DNA from: Escherichia coli
GTDB lineage: Bacteria; Pseudomonadota; Gammaproteobacteria; Enterobacterales; Enterobacteriaceae
Strand: one strand, 5' to 3'
DNA length: 64,000 nt
Assembly (NCBI RefSeq): GCF_016903815.1
Contig: NZ_CP069973.1
In this document: positions 16,704 through 46,198 of the stretch, in pieces
Layout: each line of letters begins with the position of its first letter
Numbering within the stretch: the stretch's first letter is position 1
Notes under the pieces: generated by a model
What the model was told of the DNA's origin: nothing
What the model saw: only the letters and a program-made list of their open reading frames with translations
The model's database searches: none
Position numbers and translations under genes: made by a program

Positions 16704-16723
16704 TACAACCATCAAGGGGAATA

Positions 16724-17899: not shown

Positions 17900-18265
<366 letters not shown>

Positions 18266-18357: not shown

Positions 18358-20145
<1,788 letters not shown>

Positions 20146-20538
20146 TACCGGACCATTTCTTTATTCCGGACTTTCCCCATACTGTTATTATCAGGTTTAT
20201 TTAATTCGCCATGAACCCGTTATTTAACGATATTCAGATGCGTCTTTTTCATCTGAACCACTCGCCGTACTCCTGGTACTGGAATGTAAGATTCATACCT
20301 CTGGAAGCCGTGTATATTGGCAACGATACCTGTCATATCACCATTACCTGTAATCAGTCCGGTTTTCACTGAGCGTTATATCAGAAACCTTAATGAGCTG
20401 TTACCGGTTCTGAAACGGCGGTGGGATGTGACACCGGCAATCATCTGCGCAGTGGAATACCTTTCCTGGGTAACGGTATCGCACTGACTCTCTCCCTATA
20501 ATTAACAATGGTTTAATACCTAAACACTGAATCTGCCG

Positions 20539-20979: not shown

Positions 20980-21114
20980 AAATACGCAGGCTTGGCACGA
21001 ACTTAAACAGAGCAGTAAAGTGGTAGACTGGCCCCCTGAATCTCCAGACAACCAATATCACTTAAATAAGTGATAGTCTTAATACTAGTTTTTAGACTAG
21101 TCATTGGAGAACAG

Positions 21115-21480
21115 ATGATTGATGTCTTAGGGCCGGAGAAACGCAGACGGCGTACCACACAGGAAAAGATCGCAATTGTTCAGCAGAGCTTTGAACCGGG
21201 GATGACGGTCTCCCTCGTTGCCCGGCAACATGGTGTAGCAGCCAGCCAGTTATTTCTCTGGCGTAAGCAATACCAGGAAGGAAGTCTTACTGCTGTCGCC
21301 GCCGGAGAACAGGTTGTTCCTGCCTCTGAACTTGCTGCTGCCATGAAGCAGATTAAAGAACTCCAGCGCCTGCTCGGCAAGAAAACGATGGAAAATGAAC
21401 TCCTCAAAGAAGCCGTTGAATATGGACGGGCAAAAAAGTGGATAGCGCACGCGCCCTTATTGCCCGGGGATGGGGAGTAA
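21115..21480 (+). CDS. insC: IS2 transposase OrfA (InsC)
   Basis: Starts [26 protein letters not shown]. Confidence 0.85.
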
Positions 21481-22343
21481 GCTTAGTCAGCCGTTGTCTC
21501 CGGGTGTCGCGTGCGCAGTTGCACGTCATTCTCAGACGAACCGATGACTGGATGGATGGCCGCCGCAGTCGTCACACTGATGATACGGATGTGCTTCTCC
21601 GTATACACCATGTTATCGGAGAGCTGCCCACGTATGGTTATCGTCGGGTATGGGCGCTGCTTCGCAGACAGGCAGAACTTGATGGTATGCCTGCGATCAA
21701 TGCCAAACGTGTTTACCGGATCATGCGCCAGAATGCGCTGTTGCTTGAGCGAAAACCTGCTGTACCGCCATCGAAACGGGCACATACAGGCAGAGTGGCC
21801 GTGAAAGAAAGCAATCAGCGATGGTGCTCTGACGGGTTCGAGTTCTGCTGTGATAACGGAGAGAGACTGCGTGTCACGTTCGCGCTGGACTGCTGTGATC
21901 GTGAGGCACTGCACTGGGCGGTCACTACCGGCGGCTTCAACAGTGAAACAGTACAGGACGTCATGCTGGGAGCGGTGGAACGCCGCTTCGGCAACGATCT
22001 TCCGTCGTCTCCAGTGGAGTGGCTGACGGATAATGGTTCATGCTACCGGGCTAATGAAACACGCCAGTTCGCCCGGATGTTGGGACTTGAACCGAAGAAC
22101 ACGGCGGTGCGGAGTCCGGAGAGTAACGGAATAGCAGAGAGCTTCGTGAAAACGATAAAGCGTGACTACATCAGTATCATGCCCAAACCAGACGGGTTAA
22201 CGGCAGCAAAGAACCTTGCAGAGGCGTTCGAGCATTATAACGAATGGCATCCGCATAGTGCGCTGGGTTATCGCTCGCCACGGGAATATCTGCGGCAGCG
22301 GGCTTGTAATGGGTTAAGTGATAACAGATGTCTGGAAATATAG
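21438..22343 (+). CDS. insD: IS2 transposase OrfB (InsD), DDE domain
   Basis: 301 aa overlapping OrfA in -1 frame. Confidence 0.85.
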
Positions 22344-22355
22344 GGGCAAATCCAA

Positions 22356-23084
22356 GTGGCTTTACCGGAAGCCATGGTGAAGGGATATATCACCCGCCTG
22401 GAGAACCAGCCTGTGCAGGGGGAAGTATCGTCTCCGGTAACGCTACTGGCGCAGGCACTCAGGCTTGAAGCTCCGGATGTGCAGGAACATCAGACCCTGC
22501 CGCACTCCCGTCTGGTGTATGTTGTTTCTGAAACAAAAACAGAGCCCACACTCTTCCTTCAAAAATCCCCGCTCACGTTTCTGAAAACGTTTGTTACAGG
22601 TGTCTGTACGGCATTGCTGGCGGTCTGCGTGGCCATTCCGGGATGGCAGTTTCTGACACAGCCATCACCGGCGGAGCAGCAACTCAGGGCGCTGCTGACA
22701 CCCTCACCGGATGTGCTTTCAGCAGACCAGATGATGCAGCTCAGCAGAACACTGTTAAATCATGCGTCAGAGTGGATAACCCTTTCCGGTCAGCAGATAA
22801 CGCGACTGACAGAATTCCCCCCGGCATACAACCTGCAACGCAGTGTGCAATTGCTGCAGCAACTGATGGTACTTTTCCCCGACAATCCTCGTGTTCAGGA
22901 AATGGTGGATAACTGGCAGAAGAGTGCAAGGAGTCGTGCGCTCCCGGAAGAGGCGATGACTGGCTGGAACGAAGGCATGACCCGCTTACAGCTGTTGGCT
23001 GAGCGCCTGAACCGTCCGGATGAACAGCGGGGAAAATACATGACGGTCAGTGAGCTGAAAACGGAGGTGTCTGGCATCATGTAG
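22356..23084 (+). CDS. Hypothetical membrane protein immediately downstream of IS2 (start ambiguous: GTG at 22356 or ATG at 22374; frame stays open upstream across the IS2 site)
   Basis: One predicted TM helix (FVTGVCTALLAVCVAIPGW); possibly C-terminal part of the ImpA_N gene. Confidence 0.4.
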   Translation: MALPEAMVKGYITRLENQPVQGEVSSPVTLLAQALRLEAPDVQEHQTLPHSRLVYVVSETKTEPTLFLQKSPLTFLKTFVTGVCTALLAVCVAIPGWQFLTQPSPAEQQLRALLTPSPDVLSADQMMQLSRTLLNHASEWITLSGQQITRLTEFPPAYNLQRSVQLLQQLMVLFPDNPRVQEMVDNWQKSARSRALPEEAMTGWNEGMTRLQLLAERLNRPDEQRGKYMTVSELKTEVSGIM

Positions 23085-23275
23085 GCTTTTAACCGGCATA
23101 TCCTGGCAGAAGAACAGTTGTGTCACTATGGTGAAGTCCGCAACCAGAATGGAAGCGAGCAGCAGCAAAAACAAATGAAAGATGCATTTGTTAAGCTGAT
23201 TCACGTTTACTGTTTTATATAAAGCCTTTAGGATGTGGGGGAAGGGGAGTGTTGCAATTTATTCGGTGAGATAGT

Positions 23276-23983
23276 TTGTTTGTGGAGTGTTTAAGCGCTT
23301 TTGGATGTTCGTCTGTTGTTTCGAATAGTATGGTGAATATGAATGGTAAATATAATGTCAGGAGTGAATTGTTAGCTCGTTGTATCGGAACTGGTAGATT
23401 GAAAGGAGATGTGAGAAGTGATTTTATTGGGTTTAATGGTAGTAAACAGGTAGGTTATGTTTTATTAACTTTGTTCTTAACGAAAGTAATAAATTCTGAT
23501 TTGCTCTCTCATTATCGTATATTTAATCGTTTTTTGCATTATGAGAGAAAAGTTATGGACATATATAATTCTTTGAGTGATATAGAAGTTGATTGTATTT
23601 GCCAGGAAGTGATGGCTATATATGAACATACTCAGCGATGCTGCAACGAAAAGAAAATCACAACTATCCAGTTAGGCAGGAAACTTAATGGCAGGTATGC
23701 AGATACGATTGCTGAGTTAAAAGAAACAGCAGAGATAAGAGGGGAGGATGTGATTTCTTTTGAGATGGATATATTGAATTCTTTTAATGATGCGGATGAA
23801 TATCACGGACGTGTTAAACTGGAGTTGGATATACCTGCTTCAGATATATTATATTGCCATGATTTTATTGATTCAAAACATGTAAACTCCTGGTTGGTTG
23901 AACCACATGAGTGGGTGGTTATAAATCGTTCTCTCAATGGGATTGTTACAGTGCCAGTATCATCAATAAAGATTCTTTATTGA
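23276..23983 (+). CDS. Hypothetical protein in AT-rich segment, start uncertain
   Basis: 235-aa ORF with visibly low GC compared with neighbours. Confidence 0.35.
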   Translation: MFVECLSAFGCSSVVSNSMVNMNGKYNVRSELLARCIGTGRLKGDVRSDFIGFNGSKQVGYVLLTLFLTKVINSDLLSHYRIFNRFLHYERKVMDIYNSLSDIEVDCICQEVMAIYEHTQRCCNEKKITTIQLGRKLNGRYADTIAELKETAEIRGEDVISFEMDILNSFNDADEYHGRVKLELDIPASDILYCHDFIDSKHVNSWLVEPHEWVVINRSLNGIVTVPVSSIKILY

Positions 23984-24123
23984 TAAATATGTTTGTAATA
24001 TGTTTTATATGTTCATCAGGATGAAAGTAAGCAATTTTAGTAGTGGCTAATTAAACGTCATTTAATGTTTGTTGCTATATGTTGAAAGCATAAACAGGTT
24101 TCTTTTGCATAAAGTAAAAATAA

Positions 24124-25356
24124 ATGAATGATAATTTTTTAACGGAGAAAGTCCTTACTGGAGAGAATGTTCTGCGTGCAGCAATTGCTCGTATTGAGTG
24201 GATTTTTGAAATATTTCCATCAGTTTGTCTCTCTTTTTCCGGTGGTAAAGATTCCACCGTGCTTTTCCATCTTGTGGCTGATGTGGCCCGCAGGAAAAGA
24301 CGTCGTTTCTCTGTACTGTTCATTGACTGGGAGGCTCAGTACCAGTGCACCATTGAACATATTCAGAAGATGCGGGAAATGTACCATGATGTGACGGAAA
24401 CCTTTTACTGGGTGGCGCTTCCCCTGACCACGGTAAACGGTGTCTCGCAGTTTCAACCGGAGTGGATATGCTGGGAGCCTCGTGTGACCTGGGTTCGCCA
24501 GCCACCGGAAGAGGCCATTACGGATATGGCGTATTTTCCCTTTTACCGGTATGCCATGACGTTTGAAGAATTTGTTCCGGCATTTTCTTCCTGGTTTGCT
24601 GGCAACCGGTGTGGAGTGGCAGTGCTGACCGGTGTCCGGGCGGATGAATCCCTCAACCGCTTTATGGGACTGGTGTCCCAGCGCAAACTGAGATATGCCG
24701 ATGATAAGCCTTGGACCACGGCATCGCCTGAAGGGTTTTACTACACTATGTATCCGCTGTATGACTGGAAAACTCGTGATATCTGGATATATCACACCAG
24801 AACCCGTGCCATCTACAATCCCCTGTATGATCTGATGTACCGTGCCGGCGTACCGTTACGCAACATGCGTGTCTGTGAACCTTTTGGTCCTGAACAACGT
24901 AAGGGACTGTGGCTTTACCATGTTCTGGAACCGGAAACCTGGGCCAGGATGTGTGAGCGGGTGTCAGGGGCTGCCAGCGGGGCACTTTATGCCAATGAAA
25001 GCGGGGCTTATTTTGCCCTGCGTAAGCGCATATCAAAACCAGCCCATCATACCTGGCGCAGCTATGCGATGTTTCTGCTGGATGTGATGCCGGAAAGAAC
25101 GGCAGAACATTACCGCAACAAGATAGCTGTCTATCTGCGCTGGTATCAGACGCGGGGCTTCCCGGATGACATCCCGGATGAACAGGAGAATGACCTGGGG
25201 AGCCGGGATATTCCGTCCTGGCGACGTATCTGTAAGACTCTCATAAAGAATGATTTCTGGTGCCGTACCCTCTCCTTCAGTCCGAACAAACCCCGGCACT
25301 ATGAACGTTATCTGCAGCGTATGAAAGAAAGGAGGAAGGAATGGGGGATTCTGTGA
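24124..25356 (+). CDS. ibrA: IbrA-like PAPS-reductase/DndC-like ATP pyrophosphatase family protein
   Basis: PP-loop SFSGGKDS near N-terminus; 410 aa; overlaps downstream ParB-like gene by 16 bp. Confidence 0.7.
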   Translation: MNDNFLTEKVLTGENVLRAAIARIEWIFEIFPSVCLSFSGGKDSTVLFHLVADVARRKRRRFSVLFIDWEAQYQCTIEHIQKMREMYHDVTETFYWVALPLTTVNGVSQFQPEWICWEPRVTWVRQPPEEAITDMAYFPFYRYAMTFEEFVPAFSSWFAGNRCGVAVLTGVRADESLNRFMGLVSQRKLRYADDKPWTTASPEGFYYTMYPLYDWKTRDIWIYHTRTRAIYNPLYDLMYRAGVPLRNMRVCEPFGPEQRKGLWLYHVLEPETWARMCERVSGAASGALYANESGAYFALRKRISKPAHHTWRSYAMFLLDVMPERTAEHYRNKIAVYLRWYQTRGFPDDIPDEQENDLGSRDIPSWRRICKTLIKNDFWCRTLSFSPNKPRHYERYLQRMKERRKEWGIL

Positions 25357-25979
25357 CACCGGAGATACTGAGCAACATGATTCGTCAGTACTTCAGCCAG
25401 GAACGACCAGAAGAAGAGGCCATACAGGCCCTGAATCATCTGCGCAGGGTGCTTCATGAGGTCAGTCCATTTGCACAGGAGCCTGTGGACTGTGTGCTGT
25501 GGGTGAAAGCAGATGAGGTGGTGGCCAACGATTATAACCCCAATGTCATGGCGCCGGGTGAGAAGAAACTGCTGAAACATTCACTGGAGCAGGATGGGTT
25601 CACGCAGCCTGTGGTTGTCTCGGAAGAGAAGGAGCATTATCTGGTCGTGGATGGTTTTCATCGTCAATTACTGGGCAGGGAAGCAGGTACGGGAAAACGC
25701 CTGAAGGGCTGGTTGCCAGTGACCTGTATTAATCCGGAAAGAAAGGGACAGGCCTCACGTATTGCTGCAACCATTAGACATAACCGGGCCAGGGGGAAGC
25801 ACCAGATAACTTCAATGTCTGATATTGTCAGGGACCTGTCGCGGCTGGGCTGGACGGATGAACGTATTGGTACGGAGCTGGGTATGGACCAGGATGAAGT
25901 TCTCAGGTTGAAACAGATTAGCGGGCTGACGGAGCTGTTTCTGGAAGAGGATTTCAGTCCGGCATGGACGATTCGCTGA
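25341..25979 (+). CDS. ibrB: IbrB-like ParB/sulfiredoxin-fold (DGQHR-like) protein
   Basis: VVDGFHRQ motif (DGQHR-like) in a 212-aa ORF. Confidence 0.65.
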   Translation: MGDSVTPEILSNMIRQYFSQERPEEEAIQALNHLRRVLHEVSPFAQEPVDCVLWVKADEVVANDYNPNVMAPGEKKLLKHSLEQDGFTQPVVVSEEKEHYLVVDGFHRQLLGREAGTGKRLKGWLPVTCINPERKGQASRIAATIRHNRARGKHQITSMSDIVRDLSRLGWTDERIGTELGMDQDEVLRLKQISGLTELFLEEDFSPAWTIR

Positions 25980-26018
25980 GACCGTCATATATGTATATTA
26001 TTTCAGTGAGTTAATGTT

Positions 26019-26327
26019 TTGAGCAGGAAAAAGAGTACCCCGGAAGTCGTGGAATACATGGTTGCACAGAAGCTGGAGGCTGCGGGTTGCTGGCGCAGAG
26101 CTTCCGCCCGCTGGCTTTTTGTTATGGGAAATGTTGAATGTACAGAAGCACAACGGGAGTGGTTGTTGTTGCGCAGGAATTATTGCCTGGCGCAGATATC
26201 GTCCCCGCCGCTACCTGAAAAGCTGGATATCAGCGAAGTGGCGAAAGCTGCAGATGCCACGCTGAGGCGAATGGGGATTGCCAGTCCGTCCGGGGAGGTA
26301 TTCAGAAAAGGTACACCGGTCTGTTGA
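26019..26327 (+). CDS. PerC-family transcriptional regulator homolog
   Basis: LEAAGCWRRASARW segment resembles PerC/Pch family. Confidence 0.5.
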   Translation: MSRKKSTPEVVEYMVAQKLEAAGCWRRASARWLFVMGNVECTEAQREWLLLRRNYCLAQISSPPLPEKLDISEVAKAADATLRRMGIASPSGEVFRKGTPVC

Positions 26328-26347
26328 TATTCAGGTAACAGGTATTA

Positions 26348-26992
26348 ATGATGAAGAAAGGAATGGCAAACAGTATATCAATGACATGGCAACTTTTATG
26401 CGATGATCATGGTTTTACCCGGGAGCACTACAATCAGCTGAAGAAATTCAGCCCGGAGGCATTACGTGAAATTATTGCTGAAATAGCCTGCTGCCATCCG
26501 TCAACCAGTATATTGCTCAGGAATAAGTGGCTGACACTGCCGGAGGATATTCCGGAGCAGGTTACCCGTGAATACGAACGAAGAATACAGAACTGTCCAT
26601 CTTTCAGGAGCGAGAAAGAGGCGGAATCCTGGCTAAATGAACTGTTTTTTGCTGTGATTGCGCCGCTATACCGGGTTGTCCCCGGACAATCAGAACAGGT
26701 TGAATCCTTTGTTCTGCAGCTTATTGCCGAACAGGAGCGGGTTTGGGAGCTTATTCTAACCAATGATGGTTATTCATGGCATTGCGCACTTTATGATATA
26801 TTATTTCATCTGGTTTTACGAAATATGGAAGACCAGCCTGAACATCAGAGACAGCGAATAACAAAAATACTTAATGAGTCCGATACAAGGCGGGTTGCAG
26901 AAGAGATTAAATTCCGGATTCAATATCTTCAGGATGAAGAACAAAAGAGAGTTTTAAGTGAGTTGGTAAATGTCCTGATTTCAAAAAGATAA
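26348..26992 (+). CDS. Hypothetical protein
   Basis: 214-aa ORF 20 bp downstream of the PerC-like gene. Confidence 0.4.
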   Translation: MMKKGMANSISMTWQLLCDDHGFTREHYNQLKKFSPEALREIIAEIACCHPSTSILLRNKWLTLPEDIPEQVTREYERRIQNCPSFRSEKEAESWLNELFFAVIAPLYRVVPGQSEQVESFVLQLIAEQERVWELILTNDGYSWHCALYDILFHLVLRNMEDQPEHQRQRITKILNESDTRRVAEEIKFRIQYLQDEEQKRVLSELVNVLISKR

Positions 26993-27427
26993 AACATGTC
27001 GGAGTAATTTTTCTATATATTAAAAAAACAGGTTTGTATTACCATAAAGGAGATCGGTGAATAACCGTTATTGGATGATCTCCTTCCATAAAAATACGCG
27101 CAATCTAACGGTTCGCTCTGTGCCAAAAAAAGACATTGCTCACAATATCGAGTTAATCATTCGGCCGTTGAACATTCCCATTGAAAAATTTCTCAGTATA
27201 GAATATACCAATGTTGAGGGCATTCCTCTTACATCTCGAAGGATAACTATCATGGGTCTAAAACCAGGTCCAAAACCAATTGCTAAGTCAACAGGAAAAC
27301 CGGATCAACGCCGACGCGATAATAAAGATACTCCTGGCAATACTCCGGGATTAAAGCCAAGTAAGTCCACAGGTAAGTAAAAAATAAGGGTATAAATACT
27401 TATTTATACCCTGACTACATATCCAGT

Positions 27428-28604: not shown

Positions 28605-31347
<2,743 letters not shown>

Positions 31348-31874: not shown

Positions 31875-32219
31875 AGCCGGGAGCGGCGTCAGCCAGTCTC
31901 CCTTTACCCGCGCTTTTTCGGAAAGCCCACCCCAATGTTTTTCTCCTACACCCCAGCCGGTCAGCAGGACCTTATCCCCGGTCTGATATTCAGGATGTGA
32001 GCTGGCGGACACTGTACCGGCAAAATCAATGCCTGGCACCATTGGAAAGTGCCGGACGATAGGCCCGCGGCCCGTAATAGCCAGTGCGTCTTTGTAGTTG
32101 ATAGATGAACAGTCGACATTGACCTCCACATCCCCCTGTGGCAGCTCGCTTTCAGCGATTTCAGCAATTTGGGCACTGTGGCGGTCATCCATCTTACTGA
32201 TTAATAATGATTTAAACAT
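31872..32219 (-). pseudogene. N-terminal fragment of a YhdH/AcuI-like zinc-type oxidoreductase, truncated by IS911
   Basis: 115-aa ORF (...[33 protein letters not shown]...) runs directly into the IS911 end. Confidence 0.5.
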
Positions 32220-32823
32220 TTTTTTTCTCGTCTTTCTGGTTTGATGTCATTGAGCTATAAAGTAGTCAATAAACAATATTGACCGATCGTCTAATAATCA
32301 ACGCTGATATCCCAGTGTTTGTCAGAAAACAAGAATTGCTTTTCTTTTCATCAGGTTAAATCTATCTTTTTTGATTTATATCAAACCAGATTCGGTCTTC
32401 AATTATATAGGCATCAATGTTAGCGGTCCTACAAGATACGCAGTCGATGCTTCAGGGCGTACTGATGAAATAAAACAAGTAGGCTGAGATTAGTTGGTCT
32501 GCTCATCGCTCACAGCGGACCTTCAGCTTCGTTAGCCAAGCGCTGACATAGTTACCGATGTAGCGTGTTAATCTGTCGGGAGCATAGCCGAAATCACTTA
32601 ATCCATTAGACTTCACCTAAAACTGCAAAAATTACCGTCTTTGTCACACTCACCGAGTTTAATCAAACTAACACTGTACATAGTGCGAACAAGAGCCAAC
32701 CAGAAAGACTGTTCAGCATCAACAGTGAAGTTTTTCCCCGCCACTTCCCCGCAATTCCTCCGCAGTTTTCCCACTAGAGAGTTCGACACATCCCTTGCAT
32801 ACCAACGCTTTGATTCAAATCTC

Positions 32824-33588
32824 GGTAGTGCATCCAATTAGTAGAATATGTGTTTTTCGATAAATGCTCCGATCACTTTTTCGTGGATCTCAACTGAGCG
32901 TGAGAAGCAGATTGTTTACGAGCCAACCGCTTAATGTGGGTGCGTAGCGTCAGATTATTACGCTCAATGCGTTGGGTGAATATTTTGCCGGTCAGATGCT
33001 TATTCTTCGGCACCACCCGGCCATAGCTGTCCCAGTCATCGCTGGTGAGCATGCCGATGTTGAAGGGTGTAAGCAGTGCCAGTAGCTCCCGGCACGTTTG
33101 ATTGGTTCGGGGACCAAAAGTGTAGGCCAGTACACCGCCTGTTTTGGTGTTGTACGCGTACCAGAGCCAGTGTAGCCGGGCTTTACTGCCAACGTAGCTC
33201 CATTGCTCATCAAGCTCGCAGATAAGCGCCACATCAGCATGGGCAACAGGCGAAGAAGTTATTTGCGTTGGCGCGAGTTTTTTAAAGTCCGGATGATGGT
33301 GTTAATACCAATTTTCAGTGTCCTGGCGGTATCGCGAACCCCGGCACCATTAAAGGCCATTTCAGTGATCATCTCTTTCATACCCGGCTTACGTGCTTGA
33401 TAAGTATAAGTGAGCTGAAACACACGGTGGCAGTCACGGCAGCGAAATCTGTCACGGCCTTTAGGGTTCTGACCATGGCGGTAAACCTGAGCTGACTGAC
33501 AACGGGGACAATGAATATTAACGCTGGCCATGAGATAACCTCAAAAGCCCGTATTATACATCAGATTCAACCAATTAGAGGCATCACC
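32824..33588 (-). mobile_element. IS1-family insertion sequence, divergent isoform (InsA-like 33259-33531, InsB-like 32873-33232)
   Basis: InsA-like zinc-finger ORF and InsB-like ORF; terminal repeats GGTAGTGCATCC... and ...GGCATCACC. Confidence 0.7.
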
Positions 33589-33783
33589 CTTTCCTACATT
33601 CGTAGGACTTTGATTACATATAGCAAGGGTTAATTCTTATATACATAGAATAAATTAGGAATATAATGAATTTTATCGTGACGACCTTATTTATAATTAA
33701 TTTATATCGTCAGAGAAATTAGTGTCCACAACATGAAGCCTTACAAAGAGATTCTATGATTTAAAAAAAATAAGAGCCAGCTT

Positions 33784-35253
33784 ATGCATATCGATTCGAC
33801 TGAAAAAAATAATAAACAAAAGTTGGGCTTGCTTGCGCTAACATCCATTGTCGTGAGCTCGATGATCGGCAGCGGCGTTGACGGACTCCCCCAGAATATG
33901 GCGGAGAATTCTGCCGTGGGCCCGGTGGCGATAGCATGGATAGTCTGTGGTATCGGCATGTTTTTCATCTCCAGAACTTTTATCGTGCTGTCAAACATTA
34001 GACCTGATCTCCAGTCAGGAGTTTATATGTATGCCCGGGAAGGGTTCGGCCGATTTACGGCATTTAACGTCGCCTGGGGCTACTGGCTGATGACTATATT
34101 CAGCAACGTCGCCTTTGCCATTATGGTGATGGATACGCTGAATTATTTCTTACCAGGTGATTTCAAGGGAGGGAACAATATTCCTTCCGTTATCGGTGCC
34201 TCTTTGCTGATATGGGGATTCAACTTTTTAGTCCTCTCCGGTACCCGCATTGCCGGGTCGATTAACATCGTCGGCACGCTGGCCAAACTGATCCCGCTGG
34301 TGGCCTTTATTATTATTCTCATGCTGTTTATGAAGTACACCACGTTCGCAGATAACGTCTGGGGGCACAGCGCGAGTAAGGCCAGTCAGGACCTAGGCTC
34401 TATTTTCTCACAGGTAACTTCACCGCTTAGCGTGGCACTCTGGAGCTTCATCGGCGTTGAGGGGGCTGTCGCTCTTTCCGGTCGGGCCAAAAATAAACGC
34501 GACGTGGGTAAAGCCACATTCATTGGCTTCGTTGTATCACTGATTATCTGTCTGCTGGTCTCCATCCTGCCGTTTGGCGTGCTGACTCAACATGAGCTCA
34601 GCGCAATTCCAACCCCATCCACCGCCGGTATTCTGAAGATTGTTGTCGGTGAATGGGGGAAGATTATGATTATCTTGGGGGTGCTGATTTCGGTGCTTAC
34701 CAGCTGGCTGGCGTGGACCATCATCTGCGCCGAACTGCCTATGGTGGCCGCGCAGAACGGCACATTCCCGAAACCGTTCAGCAAAAAAAATGTGAAGGGT
34801 TCGGCCTCGGTTTCGCTTTATATAAGCAGTGCGTTTATGCAAATCGTCGTACTTCTGGTCTACTTTTCTAACGATGCCTGGCTTGCAATGCTGGCTATCT
34901 CTACCCTGACCGTTTTACCTGCGTATTTAATGACCACGGCATACCTGTTTAAACTATGTATTAGCGGCGAGTATGCCAGCTATACCACGAATCACAGCCG
35001 CAGCGCCGCGCTGGTCAGCAGTATTATCGGCTTTGTATTCTGCCTGTTTATGTTCTACGCCAGTGAAATCAAATATCTGGCGATGGTTCCGGTGCTGCTT
35101 ACGCTGGGCGTGCCCCTGTTTATCTGGGCAAGAAAAAAAGACGATCGCGCAGATAAAATATTTACGCTACGCGAACTGGCATTTTTTATTTTACTGCTGG
35201 TCCTCGACATCATTGTTTTTATTCTACTGCATTATAAAACGATACATTTTTAG
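33784..35253 (+). CDS. APC-superfamily amino acid/polyamine antiporter (CadB/PotE/AdiC-like), copy 1
   Basis: 489 aa, about 12 TM segments; N-terminal SMIGSGV-type motif. Confidence 0.8.
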   Translation: MHIDSTEKNNKQKLGLLALTSIVVSSMIGSGVDGLPQNMAENSAVGPVAIAWIVCGIGMFFISRTFIVLSNIRPDLQSGVYMYAREGFGRFTAFNVAWGYWLMTIFSNVAFAIMVMDTLNYFLPGDFKGGNNIPSVIGASLLIWGFNFLVLSGTRIAGSINIVGTLAKLIPLVAFIIILMLFMKYTTFADNVWGHSASKASQDLGSIFSQVTSPLSVALWSFIGVEGAVALSGRAKNKRDVGKATFIGFVVSLIICLLVSILPFGVLTQHELSAIPTPSTAGILKIVVGEWGKIMIILGVLISVLTSWLAWTIICAELPMVAAQNGTFPKPFSKKNVKGSASVSLYISSAFMQIVVLLVYFSNDAWLAMLAISTLTVLPAYLMTTAYLFKLCISGEYASYTTNHSRSAALVSSIIGFVFCLFMFYASEIKYLAMVPVLLTLGVPLFIWARKKDDRADKIFTLRELAFFILLLVLDIIVFILLHYKTIHF

Positions 35254-35357
35254 TCCAGATTAATTCACAGCAAGTTAAGGTGACGATAATGTCTGTTTCT
35301 TGGGCATGACATCCTCACAGTTAAATACTATCTGAACAGTAACAGTGGAGACACCTA

Positions 35358-37727
35358 ATGAAATTTAACCACAATCTTTTATTTATTTCCTCACAATATC
35401 TTGATGGCGACAACCCTTCGCAGCAGGTACTGGAAGAGCTTCAAACCGAACTCGCGGAACGCGGTTTTAAAATTCATATCACGCACCAGATCTCTGATGG
35501 ATTAAAAATCATCGAAAAAAGCCCCCAATACAGCGGGATTGGTTTTTACTGGGAGCCAGACAATCCGACCTTTGCAGAAGAGCTACAGCACTTTATCAGC
35601 ATATTCCGCAAAAGAAATGCCACGACGCCGCTGATAATTTTCTCAGAACAGAATATTACCGATCGTATCCCACTCGACGTCTTAAAAGAGGTCAGCGAAT
35701 ATGTTTATCTGTTCTCTGAATCCGCAGCCTTCACTGCCAATCGACTGTACTCCTTAGTCCACCGCTATGCGGATAAGCTTCTTCCTCCCTACTTTAAAAC
35801 CCTTAAGGACTTTACCGAGGACGGTGACTATTACTGGGACTGCCCGGGGCATATGGGGGGAATGGCCTATCTGAAACATCCTGTTGGCATTGAGTTCATT
35901 AACTTCTTTGGCGAAAACATGATGCGCGCTGATATTGGCGTGGCTACCGCGGAGATGGGGGATTATCTGATCCACGCCGGACCGCCTAAAAAATCGGAAG
36001 AAATTGCGGCCCGACTGTTTGGCTCTGATTGGACCTTCTACGGTGTTTCCGGCTCATCGGGGTCGAACCGTATTGTGGCCCAGGCTGCGGTTGGCGCAGA
36101 TGAAATTGCCATTATTGACCGAAATTGCCACAAGTCACTTAATCATGGCCTGACCTTGTCTCAGGCAAGGCCGGTTTACCTGAAACCTACCCGCAACGCG
36201 TGGGGGCTGATTGGGCCTATCCCGACCGGACGCCTGAAGAAGGCCAGTATTGATGCGCTGGTGGCAAACAGCCGACTGGCATCTGGTGCGGTCAGCCAGT
36301 CCCCGTCCTACGCCGTGGTAACCAACTGCACCTATGATGGCTTCTGTTATAACGTGAACGATGTAGTCAGACACCTGGGTGAAAGCGCACCGCGCATCCA
36401 TTTTGATGAAGCATGGTATGCCTATGCGCGTTTCCATCCGCTATACCAGAGTCGCTATGCAATGGACGCGGAGGAAACGCCAAATCGTCCAACCCTATTC
36501 GCCGTACAGTCCACCCATAAAATGCTGCCCTCACTCTCCATGGCCTCAATGATTCATGTGAAGAAAAGCGATCGCGCGCCGCTTAATTTCGATGACTTTA
36601 ACGATGCCTTTATGATGCACGGCACGACCTCACCCTACTACCCGATCATTGCATCAATTGATGTGGCAGTAAGCATGATGGAGGGTGAATCCGGTTATTC
36701 GCTTGTGCAGGAGTCAATTGAAGAAGCGATTGCCTTCCGTAAAGCCGTGGTCAGCGTCAAGCGCCAGCTCCAGGAGCAGGAAGGTGGTGACGCCTGGTTC
36801 TTCGATGTGCTTCAGCCAACCGAAGTGCAGGACAGCGATTCTGGGCAGCGATACAGTTTTGAAGAGGCACCCGTATCGCTGCTGAGCCACAGCGCCGACT
36901 GCTGGTCGCTGCGCTCCGGTGAGCGCTGGCACGGTTTTGCCGATGATGATCTGGTCGAAACCAACAGTATGCTCGATCCAGTAAAAGTGACCCTGACTTG
37001 TCCAGGGATCGGCCCGAAGGGAGAATACCAGAAAAACGGTATTCCGGGATATTTGCTGACCCGTTTTCTCGATGACCGTCGCATTGAAATTGCCCGTACT
37101 GGTGACTACACCGTGCTGATCCTGTTCTCCGTCGGCATCACCAAAGGCAAATGGGGAACTCTGATTGAAAGCCTGCTGGCCTTTAAAAAGCATTACGACA
37201 ATGACGATCTGGCCACAGATGCTATCCCGTCGCTGAAAGCGCATTCTCCACACTACGACACGCTAACCCTCAAGGAGCTATGTCAGATAATGCATGAAAA
37301 AATGGATGAGCTGGAGCTGATGTCGCATATCAACGACGCGGTAAACACCGATCCGGAACCAGTTATGACCCCGGCAGAAGCCTATCAGAAAGTCGTACGC
37401 TACAAAACCGAGCATATCCGGCTGGATGATTTTAGCGGCAGAATTGCCGCCAGCATGCTCGTCCCATATCCCCCAGGCATTCCTGTACTGATGCCGGGCG
37501 AACGGATGCCGCAAGGTAACAAGGGCATTATTGGCTATCTGCGCGCCCTGCAGGAATTCGATAAGCAATTCCCAGGTTTTGAACATGAGATCCAGGGCGT
37601 TAACGTCGATGAAGACGGGGACTTCTGGGTCAGAGCGATTGTGGAAGAAGAACGCGATGGGCAGTCGCTACCCGGCCACATAACCTTTAAACGCCAGGTC
37701 TCTGGTATTAAAAAGGGCCGCCAGTAG
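35358..37727 (+). CDS. Orn/Lys/Arg decarboxylase family protein (fold-I PLP, wing domain), substrate unknown
   Basis: 789 aa; PLP-lysine motif QSTHKMLP; N-terminal wing domain; overall similarity to AdiA/SpeF/CadA. Confidence 0.85.
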   Translation: MKFNHNLLFISSQYLDGDNPSQQVLEELQTELAERGFKIHITHQISDGLKIIEKSPQYSGIGFYWEPDNPTFAEELQHFISIFRKRNATTPLIIFSEQNITDRIPLDVLKEVSEYVYLFSESAAFTANRLYSLVHRYADKLLPPYFKTLKDFTEDGDYYWDCPGHMGGMAYLKHPVGIEFINFFGENMMRADIGVATAEMGDYLIHAGPPKKSEEIAARLFGSDWTFYGVSGSSGSNRIVAQAAVGADEIAIIDRNCHKSLNHGLTLSQARPVYLKPTRNAWGLIGPIPTGRLKKASIDALVANSRLASGAVSQSPSYAVVTNCTYDGFCYNVNDVVRHLGESAPRIHFDEAWYAYARFHPLYQSRYAMDAEETPNRPTLFAVQSTHKMLPSLSMASMIHVKKSDRAPLNFDDFNDAFMMHGTTSPYYPIIASIDVAVSMMEGESGYSLVQESIEEAIAFRKAVVSVKRQLQEQEGGDAWFFDVLQPTEVQDSDSGQRYSFEEAPVSLLSHSADCWSLRSGERWHGFADDDLVETNSMLDPVKVTLTCPGIGPKGEYQKNGIPGYLLTRFLDDRRIEIARTGDYTVLILFSVGITKGKWGTLIESLLAFKKHYDNDDLATDAIPSLKAHSPHYDTLTLKELCQIMHEKMDELELMSHINDAVNTDPEPVMTPAEAYQKVVRYKTEHIRLDDFSGRIAASMLVPYPPGIPVLMPGERMPQGNKGIIGYLRALQEFDKQFPGFEHEIQGVNVDEDGDFWVRAIVEEERDGQSLPGHITFKRQVSGIKKGRQ

Positions 37728-37801
37728 GCGGGGGAAAGAACAATACCGTCGGATCGCCTGCAATCCGACGGCAATATTATAGAATAGCTGAGGGAAACGT
37801 T

Positions 37802-39301
37802 ATGGCAGAGCAATCTTCAGATGTAAAAAATAGTGACAATAGCGCCGGAGGACATAAGCTGGGGCTTATATCCCTCATCGCTATTGTCGTTAGCTCCATG
37901 CTGGGAGGCGGCGTTTTCAGTCTGCCGCAAAACACGGCGGCCTCTTCTGCACTAGGGCCAGTAATCATTGCATGGATTATTGCCGGGATCGGTATTTATT
38001 TTATCGCAAACTCCTTTCGCGTACTATCAGATCTGCGCCCGGACCTTCAGGCTGGAGTGTATATGTATGCCCAGGAAGGTTTTGGTTCCTTTATTGGCTT
38101 TAACGTCGCCTGGGGCTACTGGCTGATGACCGCATTTGGCAACGTTGCCTTTGCGGTAATTTTAATGGATGCTTTTAATCAGTTTATGCCGGGGGTTTTT
38201 ACGGATGGTAATAATCTGAACTCCATTATCTGCGGCTCAGTGCTGATCTGGGGCTATAATTTTCTTGTTCTGTCCGGGACGAAAGTGGCCGGATTTGTTA
38301 ACACCTTGGGAACCATCGCCAAGCTCGTCCCTCTGATCCTATTCGTATTACTGCTGGGTGTGCTGATCGATTATTCGGACCTGTTTAAAAACTTTTGGGG
38401 AGAATCACCCGCGATCCTCAGTGGCAACGGAAATGACGCCGCACCAGTATCGCTGCTGTCTCAGATTCTGGCACCGATGACCGTAACGCTCTGGGCCTTT
38501 ATTGGCGTCGAGGGAGCGGTTGTTCTATCCGGACGTGCCAAAAATAAACAGGACGTAGGGAAAGCCACACTGATCGGCTTTCTGCTGGCGCTAATTATTT
38601 ATATGTTAATGTCCATTCTGCCGTTCGGTGTAATGCCTCAGGCAGAACTAGCGCAGGTCAGTAACCCCTCTACCGCAGGCGTGCTCGCCCACGTTGTCGG
38701 TCAGTGGGGCGACTGGCTGATGAGCGCGGGGCTGATTATTTCTGTTCTGGCCGGCTGGCTTGCCTGGACCATGCTATGCGCTGAAATACCGATGGTAGCA
38801 GGACAGAAAGGCGCTTTCCCGCGCGCGTTTGCCCGAACGAACAGTAAACAGGCGGCCAATGTGTCACTGTGGGTTAGTAGCTTTGTGATGCAGGCGGCCA
38901 TGTTACTTGTTTATTTTTCAAATAATGCTTGGACCACCATGTATAATATCAGTGCGCTGATGGTTGTTCCGGCCTATATTACCACCACGCTGTATCTGAC
39001 CAGTATTTGCAGAAACGGAAAATATGATCAGTATGCAAAAAAAGGCCGCAGGCTGGCTTTGTCCAGCGGTGTTTTAGGCTCGCTATTCTGTCTGTTTATT
39101 CTTTACGCCAGCCAGATTGAGTATGTTGCATTAATTCCTATCCTGTTGACCTGTGGTCTGCCGGTCTTTATCTGGTCAAGAAAAGAAAAAAATGATGGTC
39201 AGCCGATATTTACCAAAAAAGAGCTGATTTATCTGATTATGCTGTTGCTGTGCGATATTATCGTCGTTGCCCTGTTTATTGGTGGATATTTAAAGGTATA
39301 A
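37802..39301 (+). CDS. APC-superfamily amino acid/polyamine antiporter, copy 2 (paralog of 33784-35253)
   Basis: 499 aa; collinear with copy 1 (e.g. RPDLQAGVYMYAQEGFG vs RPDLQSGVYMYAREGFG). Confidence 0.8.
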   Translation: MAEQSSDVKNSDNSAGGHKLGLISLIAIVVSSMLGGGVFSLPQNTAASSALGPVIIAWIIAGIGIYFIANSFRVLSDLRPDLQAGVYMYAQEGFGSFIGFNVAWGYWLMTAFGNVAFAVILMDAFNQFMPGVFTDGNNLNSIICGSVLIWGYNFLVLSGTKVAGFVNTLGTIAKLVPLILFVLLLGVLIDYSDLFKNFWGESPAILSGNGNDAAPVSLLSQILAPMTVTLWAFIGVEGAVVLSGRAKNKQDVGKATLIGFLLALIIYMLMSILPFGVMPQAELAQVSNPSTAGVLAHVVGQWGDWLMSAGLIISVLAGWLAWTMLCAEIPMVAGQKGAFPRAFARTNSKQAANVSLWVSSFVMQAAMLLVYFSNNAWTTMYNISALMVVPAYITTTLYLTSICRNGKYDQYAKKGRRLALSSGVLGSLFCLFILYASQIEYVALIPILLTCGLPVFIWSRKEKNDGQPIFTKKELIYLIMLLLCDIIVVALFIGGYLKV

Positions 39302-39443
39302 GTCCGAGTTAAATCTTTACTGGGCTAGTAATGCCGCCTTTTAAACAAGAAGGGCGGCAATCTTACTGAAATTAGTATGCTGCAAATCGGTAATGCTGCC
39401 AACTTACTGATTTAGTGTATGATGGTGATTTTAAGGTGCTTGC

Positions 39444-39719
39444 GTGGCTTCCATTTCCATCAGATGTCCTTCCTGCTCCGCTACTGAAGGCGTGGTGCGT
39501 AACGGCAAAAGCACTGCCGGACATCAGCGCTATCTCTGCTCTCACTGCCGTAAAACATGGCAACTGCAGTTCACTTACACCGCTTCTCAACCCGGTACGC
39601 ACCAGAAAATCATTGATATGGCCATGAATGGCGTTGGATGCCGGGCAACTGCCCGCATTATGGGCGTTGGCCTCAACACGATTTTACGTCACTTAAAAAA
39701 CTCAGGCCGCAGTCGGTAA
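39444..39719 (+). CDS. insA: IS1 InsA
   Basis: [40 protein letters not shown]. Confidence 0.9.
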
Positions 39720-40141
39720 CCTCGCGCATACAGCCGGGCAGTGACGTCATCGTCTGCGCGGAAATGGGCGAACAGTGGGGCTATGTCGGGGCTAAATCGC
39801 GCCAGCGCTGGCTGTTTTACGCGTATGACAGGCTCCGGAAGACGGTTGTTGCGCACGTATTCGGTGAACGCACGATGGCGACGCTGGGGCGTCTTATGAG
39901 CCTGCTGTCACCCTTTGACGTGGTGATATGGATGACGGATGGCTGGCCGCTGTATGAATCCCGCCTGAAGGGAAAGCTGCACGTAATCAGCAAGCGATAT
40001 ACGCAGCGAATTGAGCGGCATAACCTGAATCTGAGGCAGCACCTGGCACGGCTGGGACGGAAGTCGCTGTCGTTCTCAAAATCGGTGGAGCTGCATGACA
40101 AAGTCATCGGGCATTATCTGAACATAAAACACTATCAATAA
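39638..40141 (+). CDS. insB: IS1 InsB
   Basis: 167-aa ORF identical to the InsB of copy B. Confidence 0.9.
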
Positions 40142-40142
40142 G

Positions 40143-40949
40143 TTGGAGTCATTATCTAACCGTAGCGTTTATTACGCGCAGGTGACGCGTCCTGTTAATG
40201 TGCAAAGAATTGACTTACGAAGTCGGGTGAGGGCTTTCCATGCTCTCAGTCGTGGCGCAGCCGGTAGCCGTGCAATCAGTCAGATGTTGCGCCAGAGTAG
40301 CGTTGATGCAGGCCGGTGGCTGGCACGACGACTGATGCGGGAATGCGGGCTGACAAGTCGACAGATGGTTAAACATCACTACCGGGTCAACGAAGACAAA
40401 AGTCCGCCATTGCCAAATTTACTGAACCGGCAATTTCACCCCGCCGCACCAGACCGCGTCTGGTGCGGCGACATCAGTTTTATTCGCCTGCATGACAAAT
40501 GGTGTTAGCTCGCGCTCGTTGTTGATTTATATTCACGGCGGATTACCGGTTCAGCCCTCTCATTAACCGCTGATGCTGAGTTGGTGTGTAGGGCTTTGCG
40601 TAATGCACTGGAAACACGATCACGTGATGGCCGTCTGCTGTTTCATTCAGATCAAGGTGTTCAGTATAAAAGCAATAAATACAGAAAGTTACTCTGGCGT
40701 TATGGGGTAATGCAAAGTATGAGTTGCAGAGGGAATGGCCTGGATAATTCGCCGATGGAAAGAGTCTTTCGCAGCCTTAAAAATGAATGGCTTCCGAAAG
40801 GTGGTTATGGTGATTTTATCCATGCGGTACGTGATATAAACCAGTGGATTAATGGTTATTACAACGTTTATCGACCTCACACGAACAACGATGGTTTACC
40901 GCCTTGCTTACATGAAGAAAAGTGGAAACAGGTTATTCCGGTGTCCTGA
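40143..40949 (+). pseudogene. IS3-family transposase remnants (two ORF fragments)
   Basis: Fragments ...RVWCGDISFIRL and ...[20 protein letters not shown]...YNVYRPH in different frames. Confidence 0.5.
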
Positions 40950-41151
40950 TTTTGTGAACCACTACAATAATCCTTTTTCACAGACTTGTCAGCAGCCAGC
41001 ATTTATGTTCTTTTACCTGCGGGAATTTATCCGTCTGCCTGTCGGGACTACTCTGTCATACAGAAATCAGGTAGGAATAAATTGTAGTGGAAAGTCGATG
41101 TTTACCGGATGACTGATGCGCGCTTGTACACAGACAGTGTGTTTCAGTAAT

Positions 41152-41667
41152 ATGGAGAATAATGAAATGAATAACACAGACACATTAGAAAAAATAATCA
41201 GACACCAAAAAAACAAAGACCCCGCATATCCCTTTCGGGAACATTTGTTGATGCAGCTCTGTATTCGCACAAATAAAAGAATGCAGGATAATATATCTGA
41301 ATTTCTGGGGGCGTATGGAATAAATCACTCAGCATATATGGTTCTCACCACATTATTCGCAGCGGAGAACCATTGTCTGTCACCTTCAGAGATAAGCCAG
41401 AAACTTCAGTTTACCAGAACTAATATTACCCGCATTACAGATTTTTTAGAAAAAGCCGGATATGTAAAAAGGACGGATAGCAGGGAGGATCGCCGTGCTA
41501 AAAAAATCAGTCTGACATCTGAAGGTATGTTTTTTATTCAGAGGCTCACTCTTGCACAAAGCATGTATCTGAAAGAAATCTGGGATTATCTGACTCATGA
41601 TGAACAGGAACTGTTTGAAGTCATTAATAAAAAATTACTGGCACATTTTTCTGATGCCAGCTCATAA
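41152..41667 (+). CDS. MarR-family transcriptional regulator (PapX/SfaX/FocX-like)
   Basis: Winged-helix MarR pattern; start taken at MENNEMNNTDT; resembles fimbrial-operon-associated regulators from memory. Confidence 0.55.
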   Translation: MENNEMNNTDTLEKIIRHQKNKDPAYPFREHLLMQLCIRTNKRMQDNISEFLGAYGINHSAYMVLTTLFAAENHCLSPSEISQKLQFTRTNITRITDFLEKAGYVKRTDSREDRRAKKISLTSEGMFFIQRLTLAQSMYLKEIWDYLTHDEQELFEVINKKLLAHFSDASS

Positions 41668-42133
41668 AGTGCGAAATATCTGAGGATGCTGGATAGCTTC
41701 AGGCAAGAGAATAATGATTCTTGCAGATGTGTTTTTCCGGATACAAAAACAAAAGTAAAAAATTGCAGCGCCAGGCCACCTTTCAAAGCAGGGAGGCTTG
41801 TACCGCGTCGAAAATTTCAGCCAGTTAATGTAATTGTCTGAACCAGGCACTTCGCCCGGGCAGGAGAAGGAGCGTGGTTGCGGTCATCCTGTATACTGAA
41901 GTCGTTATGAAGGAATAATACAAATAATTGCCCGTTTTCTCTGTACGATAGAGGCAGGTGTGTATGATTGCATCACTATGTTTTTGTGATATAAAAAACT
42001 AAATGGTGAGATATGCATTTTAAAATATAACAAAAATCACCATGAAATAAGAATAATTATCCACGGAGAACATAAACTGCAGACTGTTACAATGCATGCT
42101 GTTCATCTTGACAATGTCGGTAATGACTCCAAC

Positions 42134-42637
42134 TTATTGATAGTGTTTTATGTTCAGATAATGCCCGATGACTTTGTCATGCAGCTCCACCGATTTTGAG
42201 AACGACAGCGACTTCCGTCCCAGCCGTGCCAGGTGCTGCCTCAGATTCAGGTTATGCCGCTCAATTCGCTGCGTATATCGCTTGCTGATTACGTGCAGCT
42301 TTCCCTTCAGGCGGGATTCATACAGCGGCCAGCCATCCGTCATCCATATCACCACGTCAAAGGGTGACAGCAGGCTCATAAGACGCCCCAGCGTCGCCAT
42401 CGTGCGTTCACCGAATACGTGCGCAACAACCGTCTTCCGGAGCCTGTCATACGCGTAAAACAGCCAGCGCTGGCGCGATTTAGCCCCGACATAGCCCCAC
42501 TGTTCGCCCATTTCCGCGCAGACGATGACGTCACTGCCCGGCTGTATGCGCGAGGTTACCGACTGCGGCCTGAGTTTTTTAAGTGACGTAAAATCGTGTT
42601 GAGGCCAACGCCCATAATGCGGGCAGTTGCCCGGCAT
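42134..42637 (-). CDS. insB: IS1 InsB
   Basis: Identical translation to copy A InsB. Confidence 0.9.
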
Positions 42638-42831
42638 CCAACGCCATTCATGGCCATATCAATGATTTTCTGGTGCGTACCGGGTTGAGAAGCGGTGTAA
42701 GTGAACTGCAGTTGCCATGTTTTACGGCAGTGAGAGCAGAGATAGCGCTGATGTCCGGCAGTGCTTTTGCCGTTACGCACCACGCCTTCAGTAGCTGAAC
42801 AGGAGGGACAGCTGATAGAAACAGAAGCCAC
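42556..42831 (-). CDS. insA: IS1 InsA
   Basis: Near-identical to copy A InsA. Confidence 0.9.
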
Positions 42832-43360
42832 TGGAGCACCTCAAAAACACCATCATACACTAAATCAGTAAGTTGGCAGCATCACCCAATCTGCTGACAG
42901 ACGAAGATAATGAACCCGTTATGGTTTTTAACGGAGAGAGGAATGTACTGGCAGACAGTCTGAAACCACAGCCTCTGATTCTTCCGGTCAAGGGAAAATA
43001 AGCGTAATGTTCATCACCAGATTATGTACGATGAGTTTTCCACTGTTTATAGCAATTATCTTGCTAATAACCAGACAGGAGTAACCAGACCAACCGAAAA
43101 CACCGGGAAGGTGATTACCCGCTGGCAGAGGAAATCCGGTTTTTTTTGATGTCAGCCATAACGTGTTTGACAATAAAGCATCATGAAAGGGTGTTAATGA
43201 GTCCATGGGATAATTCATAAAAATAATTTACTGTGTTATCCTTTTCAAAAGAAATATTCAGAAGATAACCCCTGGCTGACAACCAGGGGAAGGGGGCATT
43301 AACAGTGTTATTATTGGTGAATAAATTATTACTTGTGTGCAGGATACACTAATGCAATAT

Positions 43361-46122: not shown

Positions 46123-46198
46123 TGGTGCCCGGACTCGGAATCGAACCAAGGACACGGGGATTTTCAATCCCCTGCTCTACCGACTGAGCTATCCGGGC
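46123..46198 (-). tRNA. pheU: tRNA-Phe (anticodon GAA)
   Basis: Reverse complement reads GCCCGGATAGCTCAGTCGGTAGAGCAGGGGATTGAAAATCCCC...GGGCACCA, 76 nt. Confidence 0.9.

Follow-up and report, generated by a model that had tools for sequence, protein, structure and literature searches.

An antiporter-decarboxylase-antiporter operon in a tRNA-Phe island of Escherichia coli, with histidine as the leading candidate substrate

Organization of the locus

The stretch of DNA analyzed here, referred to as the window, comprises 64,000 nucleotides of Escherichia coli contig NZ_CP069973.1 (assembly GCF_016903815.1) and contains a unit of three genes on the plus strand. The upstream gene, antA (33784–35253), encodes a 489-residue basic amino acid/amine antiporter of the APC superfamily and the ArcD/YdgI lineage; the central gene, dec (35358–37727), encodes a 789-residue wing-domain decarboxylase that depends on pyridoxal phosphate (PLP) and has the aspartate aminotransferase (AAT) fold; and the downstream gene, antB (37802–39301), encodes a second antiporter of 499 residues. 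The list of open reading frames (ORFs) bears out the gene content, order and strand given in a preliminary description of this DNA, and the two antiporters are, as stated there, collinear paralogs (55% identity across 483 residues). IS1-family elements bound the unit on both sides, at 32824–33588 on the minus strand and at 39389–40156 on the plus strand.

A tRNA-Phe gene is located at 46123–46198, and the neighborhood is the pheU side of dicD-dsbD; the module therefore sits within an island inserted at pheU, the site at which K-12 carries cadCBA. The preliminary description had held that the unit is not cadBA, and it was right: the gene order differs from that of the K-12 genes at pheU, CadC is missing, and the decarboxylase shares 37% identity with CadA.

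The decarboxylase falls in a distinct clade

The 789-residue decarboxylase has the three-domain architecture of the wing-domain LAOdc family, as seen in a 99%-identical protein (P0001) with matches to PF03709 (N-terminal wing), PF01276 (major PLP domain) and PF03711 (C-terminal domain). Residues S385-T386-H387-K388 align with the STHK region around the PLP-lysine K386 of solved AdiA, and this motif is invariant in 17 homologs; the family models and the motif agree with the earlier assignment as an Orn/Lys/Arg-type PLP decarboxylase carrying STHK. The closest solved structures are those of AdiA (7p9b and 2vyc, E 4e-191), with residues 8–761 of the decarboxylase aligned. The enzyme matches all of the NCBIfam models for wing-domain Orn/Lys/Arg decarboxylases, yet it remains under every curated cutoff. 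The best-scoring curated model is that of AdiA (NF011603; 740.3 bits against an equivalog cutoff of 1167), and the scores on the remaining models are 621.9 bits for LdcC (cutoff 968), 561.7 for CadA (cutoff 1056), 429.4 for SpeC (cutoff 794) and 425.4 for SpeF (cutoff 1310). Global identity amounts to 39% with AdiA, 37–39% with CadA and LdcC, and 31% with SpeC and SpeF.

Phylogenetic relationships were evaluated with a neighbor-joining rather than a maximum-likelihood tree (Kimura distances, 756 columns), in which K-12 AdiA, CadA, LdcC and SpeF, together with SpeC from E. coli strain 1303, served as references. The E. coli decarboxylase falls in a clade, here labeled clade X, that also includes a Photobacterium "hdc2"-type enzyme (197 of 200 bootstraps). 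The sister of clade X is a group of acidobacterial, Methanosarcina and Dyella sequences (group Y), X and Y being joined in 200/200 bootstraps, and the AdiA group is recovered apart from clade X in 172/200. A comparison with CadA, AdiA, SpeF and LdcC had been proposed in the preliminary description; its outcome is that the enzyme stands outside every characterized E. coli clade, that of SpeC included. Assignment to the AdiA, CadA, LdcC, SpeC or SpeF families was rejected on the combination of scores under the cutoffs, a separate clade and 31–39% identity. A database search returned a continuum of homologs of ∼790 residues that are 53–87% identical and all bear generic names.

Clade X is marked by 246 invariant alignment columns, 15 of which hold residues that differ from those of all three reference groups. 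Most clade X enzymes also extend ∼28 residues past the end of AdiA (residues 763–789 of the E. coli protein, encoded at 37644–37727). The extension mostly ends in a basic (I/V)KKGRQ sequence that is kept across gamma-, beta- and alphaproteobacteria and Victivallis; in Ignatzschineria it diverges to IRTAR, and it is missing from the enzymes of Photobacterium and Shewanella (P0097). Apart from the divergent Ignatzschineria tail, the extension is present in nearly all of the examined clade members with a linked ArcD-lineage antiporter, and it might anchor the decarboxylase to AntB or to the membrane.

Two loci pair a relative of the E. coli enzyme with a paralog of the AdiA type. In Dyella japonica (L084, 2997–13048), two wing-domain decarboxylase genes, one of clade X or Y and one AdiA-like, lie in tandem, flanked by two AdiC-like antiporter genes, and the arrangement looks like a two-substrate acid-resistance cluster. 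A metagenome-assembled genome (MAG; L019, 5368–11815) likewise carries a clade X or Y decarboxylase gene in tandem with an AdiA-like paralog. The occurrence of the two kinds of gene side by side argues that their products act on different substrates, and these tandem paralogs fit what has been termed "hidden paralogy" in the Adc group (PMC6257575).

AntA and AntB belong to one antiporter lineage

Both transporters exceed the cutoff of 409 bits for the basic amino acid/polyamine antiporter subfamily (TIGR00905), with scores of 486.7 for AntA and 493 for AntB. AntA stays under the cutoffs of the ArcD, HdcP, AdiC, CadB and PotE models. The scores of AntA and AntB are 441 and 450 bits on the ArcD model (TIGR03810, cutoff 591) and 437 and 416 bits on the HdcP-type histidine-histamine model (NF040512, cutoff 725); on the AdiC model they are 145–155 bits (cutoff 574), and identity to AdiC is 27%. 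In the antiporter tree the module transporters of E. coli and of the genera listed in the next section form a single lineage that is sister to E. coli YdgI/ArcD, with 38–40% identity to YdgI. AntA and AntB differ from these arginine-ornithine antiporters in falling under the ArcD equivalog cutoff and in their linkage, which is with a decarboxylase instead of the arginine deiminase pathway.

Orthologs at the upstream position (AntA) are monophyletic in 100/100 bootstraps, and the tandem antiporter pairs of Ignatzschineria and of contig L093 arose independently. A downstream ortholog of the AntB type, 58–84% identical, is present at every clade X locus except that of Photobacterium, and it is the sole antiporter in Victivallis, Lentisphaeria, an alphaproteobacterial MAG and a Salmonella plasmid. 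This distribution, together with the tree, indicates that AntB is the ancestral and conserved primary partner of the decarboxylase and AntA an old duplicate, and that the two-antiporter arrangement evolved more than once. AntA has presumably been retained for a differing affinity, pH range or substrate/product pair. ArcD1 and ArcD2 of Lactococcus are a precedent for paired paralogous exchangers within one pathway cluster.

The operon recurs in other genera

Relatives outside E. coli were collected by a scan of species-representative genomes and by contig look-ups. The antA-dec-antB order was found in Citrobacter, a Klebsiella sp., Proteus faecis, Proteus terrae, a Hafnia-like genome, Providencia rustigianii, a plasmid of Providencia rettgeri, Commensalibacter intestini, Alcaligenes endophyticus, two Bordetella species plus Bordetella avium, and an 83%-identical metagenomic relative. 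Victivallis, Lentisphaeria, the alphaproteobacterial MAG, Amphritea and a Salmonella IncF plasmid have dec-antB only, and in Ignatzschineria and contig L093 the decarboxylase gene is followed by two antiporter genes. Genomes of Proteus vulgaris also carry the decarboxylase gene. The preliminary description had suggested searching other genomes for the three-gene unit with its IS1 flanks: the unit does recur in other genera, but no IS1 was found at any of these loci. DNA homology to other genera ends at the coding regions (∼70% identity), so that neither a donor nor an ancestral boundary can be defined, and no regulator gene lies next to the operon in any of the genera.

In the Hafnia-like genome (L088/L089, 13758–17931) the operon lies ∼1.8 kb upstream of a trio of the formyl-CoA transferase/oxalyl-CoA decarboxylase type (CoA_transf_3, TPP enzyme, CoA_transf_3), with a ZinT gene between trio and operon; the trio suggests an oxalate-linked acid-tolerance neighborhood. 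Methanosarcina spelaei (L022, 3764–9442) carries an archaeal group Y homolog, 53% identical, which comes after genes for a PepD-like β-Ala-His dipeptidase (under its cutoff) and a glutamate decarboxylase. This locus suggests inter-domain transfer of an acid-resistance cluster, and the dipeptidase may hint faintly at a further link to histidine.

Proposed function and candidate substrates

We regard antA-dec-antB as very probably a decarboxylation-antiport module. By analogy with the Adi, Cad, SpeF-PotE and Hdc systems, an antiporter would bring in a basic amino acid, a cytoplasmic and probably decameric wing-domain PLP enzyme would strip off its carboxyl group and use up one proton in doing so, and the amine product would leave in exchange for fresh substrate. 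The net effect would be a rise in internal and external pH and a gain in proton-motive force. Of the known systems, AdiA-AdiC-AdiY of E. coli resembles the module in its wing-domain PLP enzyme of the AAT fold, which provides the closest structure, and in its decarboxylation-antiport logic. The module differs from it by 39% identity and a separate clade for the enzyme, by two antiporters of the ArcD lineage and by the 28-residue C-terminal extension; no AraC-type gene comparable to adiY adjoins it. CadC-CadB-CadA and SpeF-PotE share the enzyme superfamily and the antiport principle with the module, which differs in gene order, in having no CadC, and in identity (37% to CadA, 31% to SpeF); cadCBA, moreover, belongs to the core genome of K-12, whereas the module lies inside a tRNA-inserted island. 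Systems of this kind are well known and one member of the clade has apparently been characterized, while the literature searched contained no experimental characterization or other study of the E. coli operon.

No substrate had been assigned in the preliminary description, and the candidates are now narrowed by a Photobacterium enzyme encoded in a cluster with a histidine/histamine antiporter and hisS. The homolog of Photobacterium kishitanii is 62% identical to the E. coli decarboxylase, and its gene lies between an antiporter gene (738 bits on the histidine-histamine model TIGR04298, cutoff 750) and hisS (449 bits, cutoff 287); Photobacterium phosphoreum has the same three-gene layout. The Photobacterium enzyme is nested in the core of clade X (200/200 bootstraps) and has the 15 clade signatures, and its six private substitutions among the 246 clade-invariant columns are comparable to those of other divergent members. 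The "hdc2" gene of P. phosphoreum reportedly goes back to Bjornsdottir-Butler et al. 2020 (Int J Food Microbiol 334:108815). A passage of a later paper lists hdc2 and a histidine-histamine antiporter in 11 P. phosphoreum genomes and one Photobacterium carnosum genome that are without classical hdc, and cites the 2020 work for histidine decarboxylase activity of the P. phosphoreum hdc2 (PMC8671102). The 90%-identity cluster of the Photobacterium enzyme consists of P. phosphoreum, P. kishitanii and Photobacterium toruni entries plus one from P. carnosum. From gene context and species distribution we are confident that the Photobacterium gene of the Orn/Lys/Arg family (L091, L097, L098) is the published hdc2, although sequence details of hdc2 were not found in the papers citing the 2020 work. 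The hdc2-type enzyme, from a Photobacterium known for fish spoilage, is apparently the only member of clade X that has been tested.

Where an aminoacyl-tRNA synthetase paralog adjoins a decarboxylase gene, it usually points to the substrate; examples are lysU, close to cadBA, and hisRS, found in hdc clusters. A decarboxylase recruited into a cluster of HdcT and hisS would most simply have acted on histidine already. The two-antiporter layout also has a precedent among histidine decarboxylases. The classical cluster hdcT1-hdc-hdcT2-hisRS of Morganella, Klebsiella/Raoultella and Photobacterium (PMC12072131) resembles the module in having antiporter, decarboxylase and antiporter genes on one strand; it differs in that its PLP enzyme, of ∼380 residues, belongs to another family, its antiporters are of the TIGR04298 type, and hisRS is present. 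On these comparisons, histidine is tentatively the leading candidate substrate for the E. coli enzyme and arginine the runner-up. That the 789-residue protein is a wing-domain histidine decarboxylase, with AntA and AntB as histidine/histamine exchangers, is possible, and we put it forward more tentatively still. Overall, the explanation that best accounts for the locus, and one that we consider probable though far from secure, is a horizontally acquired, self-contained antA-dec-antB decarboxylation-antiport operon whose enzyme comes from a widely transferred clade, with histidine as the lead and with the IS1-family elements as later insertions.

Several points weigh against an extension from Photobacterium to E. 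coli. No hisS or lysU paralog was found next to the other clade members examined. The Photobacterium partner, a single AdiC/PotE-like antiporter of the HdcT type, is of a different lineage (25% identity to AntA and AntB), and the Photobacterium enzyme is without the basic C-terminal tail of ∼20 residues that ends in IKKGRQ. Of the six substitutions private to this enzyme, two (W225K and F381I) are located near PLP-site motifs, so a switch of substrate on the Photobacterium branch is possible. Activity, as far as the passage cited above goes, is reported for the P. phosphoreum member alone and not for members partnered by ArcD-lineage antiporters, and the placement of hdc2 in this family, highly probable as it is, comes from context and distribution. 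The arginine-ornithine and histidine-histamine models give AntA and AntB equal scores, the enzyme's closest relatives among solved structures and curated models are arginine decarboxylases, and no dedicated regulator adjoins the operon in E. coli.

If arginine were the substrate, the module would be a second arginine-dependent acid-resistance system, with a paralogous arginine decarboxylase and with antA and antB encoding arginine/agmatine or arginine/ornithine exchangers. The AdiA model and the AdiA structures give the best matches, homologs are named "arginine decarboxylase" in many sources, and the antiporters belong to the ArcD/YdgI lineage. We nevertheless consider this unlikely: the AdiA score lies well under its cutoff at 39% identity, the clade is strongly separated from AdiA in the tree, relatives occur in tandem with AdiA-like paralogs in Dyella and L019, the ArcD cutoff is not reached, and E. 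coli already has AdiA-AdiC. Proteus vulgaris, one of the carriers of the gene, is also described as negative in the Moeller tests for arginine, lysine and ornithine.

A decarboxylase for lysine, for ornithine or of broad specificity, with antiporters for different substrate/product pairs as in the three-component lysine/ornithine system of Lactobacillus saerimneri, is quite unlikely. Switches of substrate within the family are documented: a lysine decarboxylase of Burkholderia is placed within the Adc cluster, and in L. saerimneri a single antiporter works with two decarboxylases (PMC6257575). Two divergent antiporters have been retained under purifying selection in E. coli, and antiporter duplication recurred independently in L093 and Ignatzschineria. 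The residue at position 579, however, is alanine throughout the clade, where it is one of the 15 signatures and is preceded two residues earlier by a clade-specific E577, whereas CadA, LdcC, SpeC and SpeF all have glutamate. We take this glutamate to be the residue that binds the distal amine in the lysine and ornithine enzymes, the argument being a comparative one. The lysine and ornithine decarboxylase models also score below that of AdiA.

Acid resistance of E. coli is usually described in terms of the Gad, Adi, Cad and SpeF-PotE systems, beside which the module would stand as a further strain-variable decarboxylase/antiporter system. If histidine is indeed the substrate, about 1 in 11 E. 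coli strains, CFT073 among them, could make and export histamine and would be unrecognized producers of it in the gut and urinary tract; many strains of Proteus, Providencia, Hafnia, Citrobacter, Bordetella and Victivallis would share the ability. Histamine from bacteria acts on host immunity and on pain signaling. Neither hdc-PCR nor genome surveys for the two classical types of histidine decarboxylase would detect the pathway, which could explain strain-variable or "hdc-negative" histamine formation in enteric bacteria; surveys by the classical pyruvoyl and PLP enzymes (e.g., PMC8465708) would have missed the entire clade. Whatever the substrate, the repeated independent doubling of the antiporter and the conserved C-terminal tail pose a concrete question about transport.

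Distribution and maintenance in E. coli

Of 5426 complete E. coli genomes, 494 (∼9%), uropathogen CFT073 among them, carry the 5.8-kb interior of the module at ≥99% identity, and the features of the module are therefore real and not due to chance. The contexts differ: the module occupies pheU in the window and in strain 600029, pheV in strain 1303 and a third island in CFT073. When the window is compared with strain 600029, whose allele is 98.8% identical, the ratio of nonsynonymous to synonymous polymorphism (pN/pS) is 0.09 for antA, 0.17 for the decarboxylase gene and 0.19 for antB, and the three genes are thus under purifying selection in E. coli.

These values bear on whether the module could be silent, decaying island cargo without a present function in E. 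coli, which we judge highly improbable. The surrounding island is rich in IS fragments and pseudogenes, the upstream IS insertion leaves only 195 bp before antA, and no regulator gene adjoins. Against this, the three frames are intact in the 494 genomes, pN/pS is low between divergent alleles, and a promoter-like site that matches the consensus still lies upstream. A pseudogenized remnant was rejected on the intact frames and the low pN/pS.

The flanking IS1-family elements

InsA and InsB genes together with terminal inverted repeats, the marks of the IS1 family, are present at each flank separately. In the left element the ORFs at 33259–33531 and 32873–33232 match NF033558, and its 23-bp termini agree by eye at 17 of 23 positions; it is annotated as "IS1 family transposase, frameshifted" in an identical genome (L001). 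Both ORFs of the right element match NF033558 as well, its terminal inverted repeats are located at 39391–39411 and 40134–40154, and it is annotated in the identical genome with an intact programmed frameshift. The two elements give no DNA alignment with each other, and their InsA and InsB proteins are 44–45% identical. Models, ends and identities thus confirm a divergent IS1-family element on the left and a canonical IS1 on the right, in opposite orientations, as originally reported.

The same report likened the arrangement to a composite transposon, and here the data point elsewhere. The left element is not bordered by a 9-bp target duplication, the sequences on its two sides being TCAAATCTC and CTTTCCTAC, nor is the right IS1 bordered by a target duplication (CTGCAAATC and TAACCGTAG), and none was found around the unit as a whole (TCAAATCTC at the left, TAACCGTAG at the right). 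The right IS1 abuts antB in 445 of the 494 carrier genomes, and the left element abuts antA in 399, all of which carry the same outer-left flank; the outer-right flank of the window is matched in only 89. A fragment of an alcohol dehydrogenase gene past the left IS is common to the window, strain 600029 and CFT073. The shared outer-left flank and this fragment imply that the inherited block reaches beyond the left IS.

That the two elements form a composite transposon that mobilizes the operon between sites is accordingly very unlikely, even though inverted IS1-family elements stand on both sides of the operon, the bracketed unit occurs in islands at pheU, pheV and the third CFT073 site, and the right IS1 adjoins in most carriers. 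The two ISs are unlike, target duplications are absent, the left transposase is frameshifted in this strain, and the flank beyond the left IS is constant. Furthermore, of 1478 matching places in E. coli nearly all are chromosomal and only 3 are on plasmids, and the plasmid collection contains no close copy of the module. An active composite transposon was rejected on the unlike elements, the lack of target duplications, the constant outer-left flank and the IS1-free operons elsewhere, and we conclude that the module is in all likelihood not one; a gene set does not become a transposon merely by having an IS element at each end. The junction counts fit one ancestral arrangement that was later reshaped at the right IS1, not repeated composite transposition. 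The IS1-family elements are very probably independent later insertions that trimmed the surroundings of the operon in the tRNA-Phe island and drive the rearrangement on the right side without moving the unit as a composite transposon.

A third IS1 is located at 42121–42886 on the minus strand, 2 kb from the right IS1 on the plus strand, to which it is inverted and 98.3% identical. Between them lie a fragment of an IS3-family element and a gene for a MarR-family regulator (41116–41667). This pair resembles a composite arrangement more than the pair that flanks the module, and it probably explains the variable right flank.

Noncoding features and the surrounding island

The 195-bp spacer upstream of antA is AT-rich and contains one good promoter-like site. 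The best σ70-like match is located at 33640–33667 on the plus strand (TATACA-16-TATAAT, 10 of 12 positions); it is a match to the consensus only, and shuffled sequence has no fewer sites of this kind than the region itself. A candidate leader ORF of 18 codons, MNFIVTTLFIINLYRQRN (33666–33722, plus strand), is located 118 nt before antA, and the evidence for it is weak. Small ORFs ending in LNLYI in Citrobacter (L005) and in LNLYL in Klebsiella (L008) lie at the same distance upstream of antA, with synonymous codon differences across N-L-Y, and related N(R)LY frames occur upstream of antA in Proteus (L007), Hafnia (L088) and L099. The MNFIVTTLFIINLYRQRN ORF may encode a leader peptide with a regulatory role like that of SpeFL or TnaC, a reading qualified by the overlap of its ATG with the best –10 hexamer.

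The terminator scan found an inverted repeat with a 13-bp stem (37744–37773) in the 74-bp spacer between dec and antB, which could act as an attenuator or stabilizer within the operon. An Rfam scan of 32000–41000 found no riboswitch or leader RNA and no match for this repeat. Past the antB stop codon, a GC-rich hairpin on the plus strand (39333–39358) is formed by GCCGCCTTT, an 8-nt loop and AAGGGCGGC, and the right IS1 begins 31 bp further on; the hairpin has no T-run and is absent from the terminator-scan list.

On the left, 2 kb from the module, a gene for a group II intron reverse transcriptase/maturase (ltrA; 29276–30784, plus strand) lies within an IS3-family remnant. The part of the island at ∼12500–27400 of the window (L001, 1–14881), placed by coordinate offset because L001 was compared with window positions 32500–40500 only, carries grp propanediol-utilization genes (annotated grpA-D), remnants of type VI secretion genes, a 3'-5' exonuclease gene, and a PAPS-reductase/IbrB-like pair with a PerC-family regulator.

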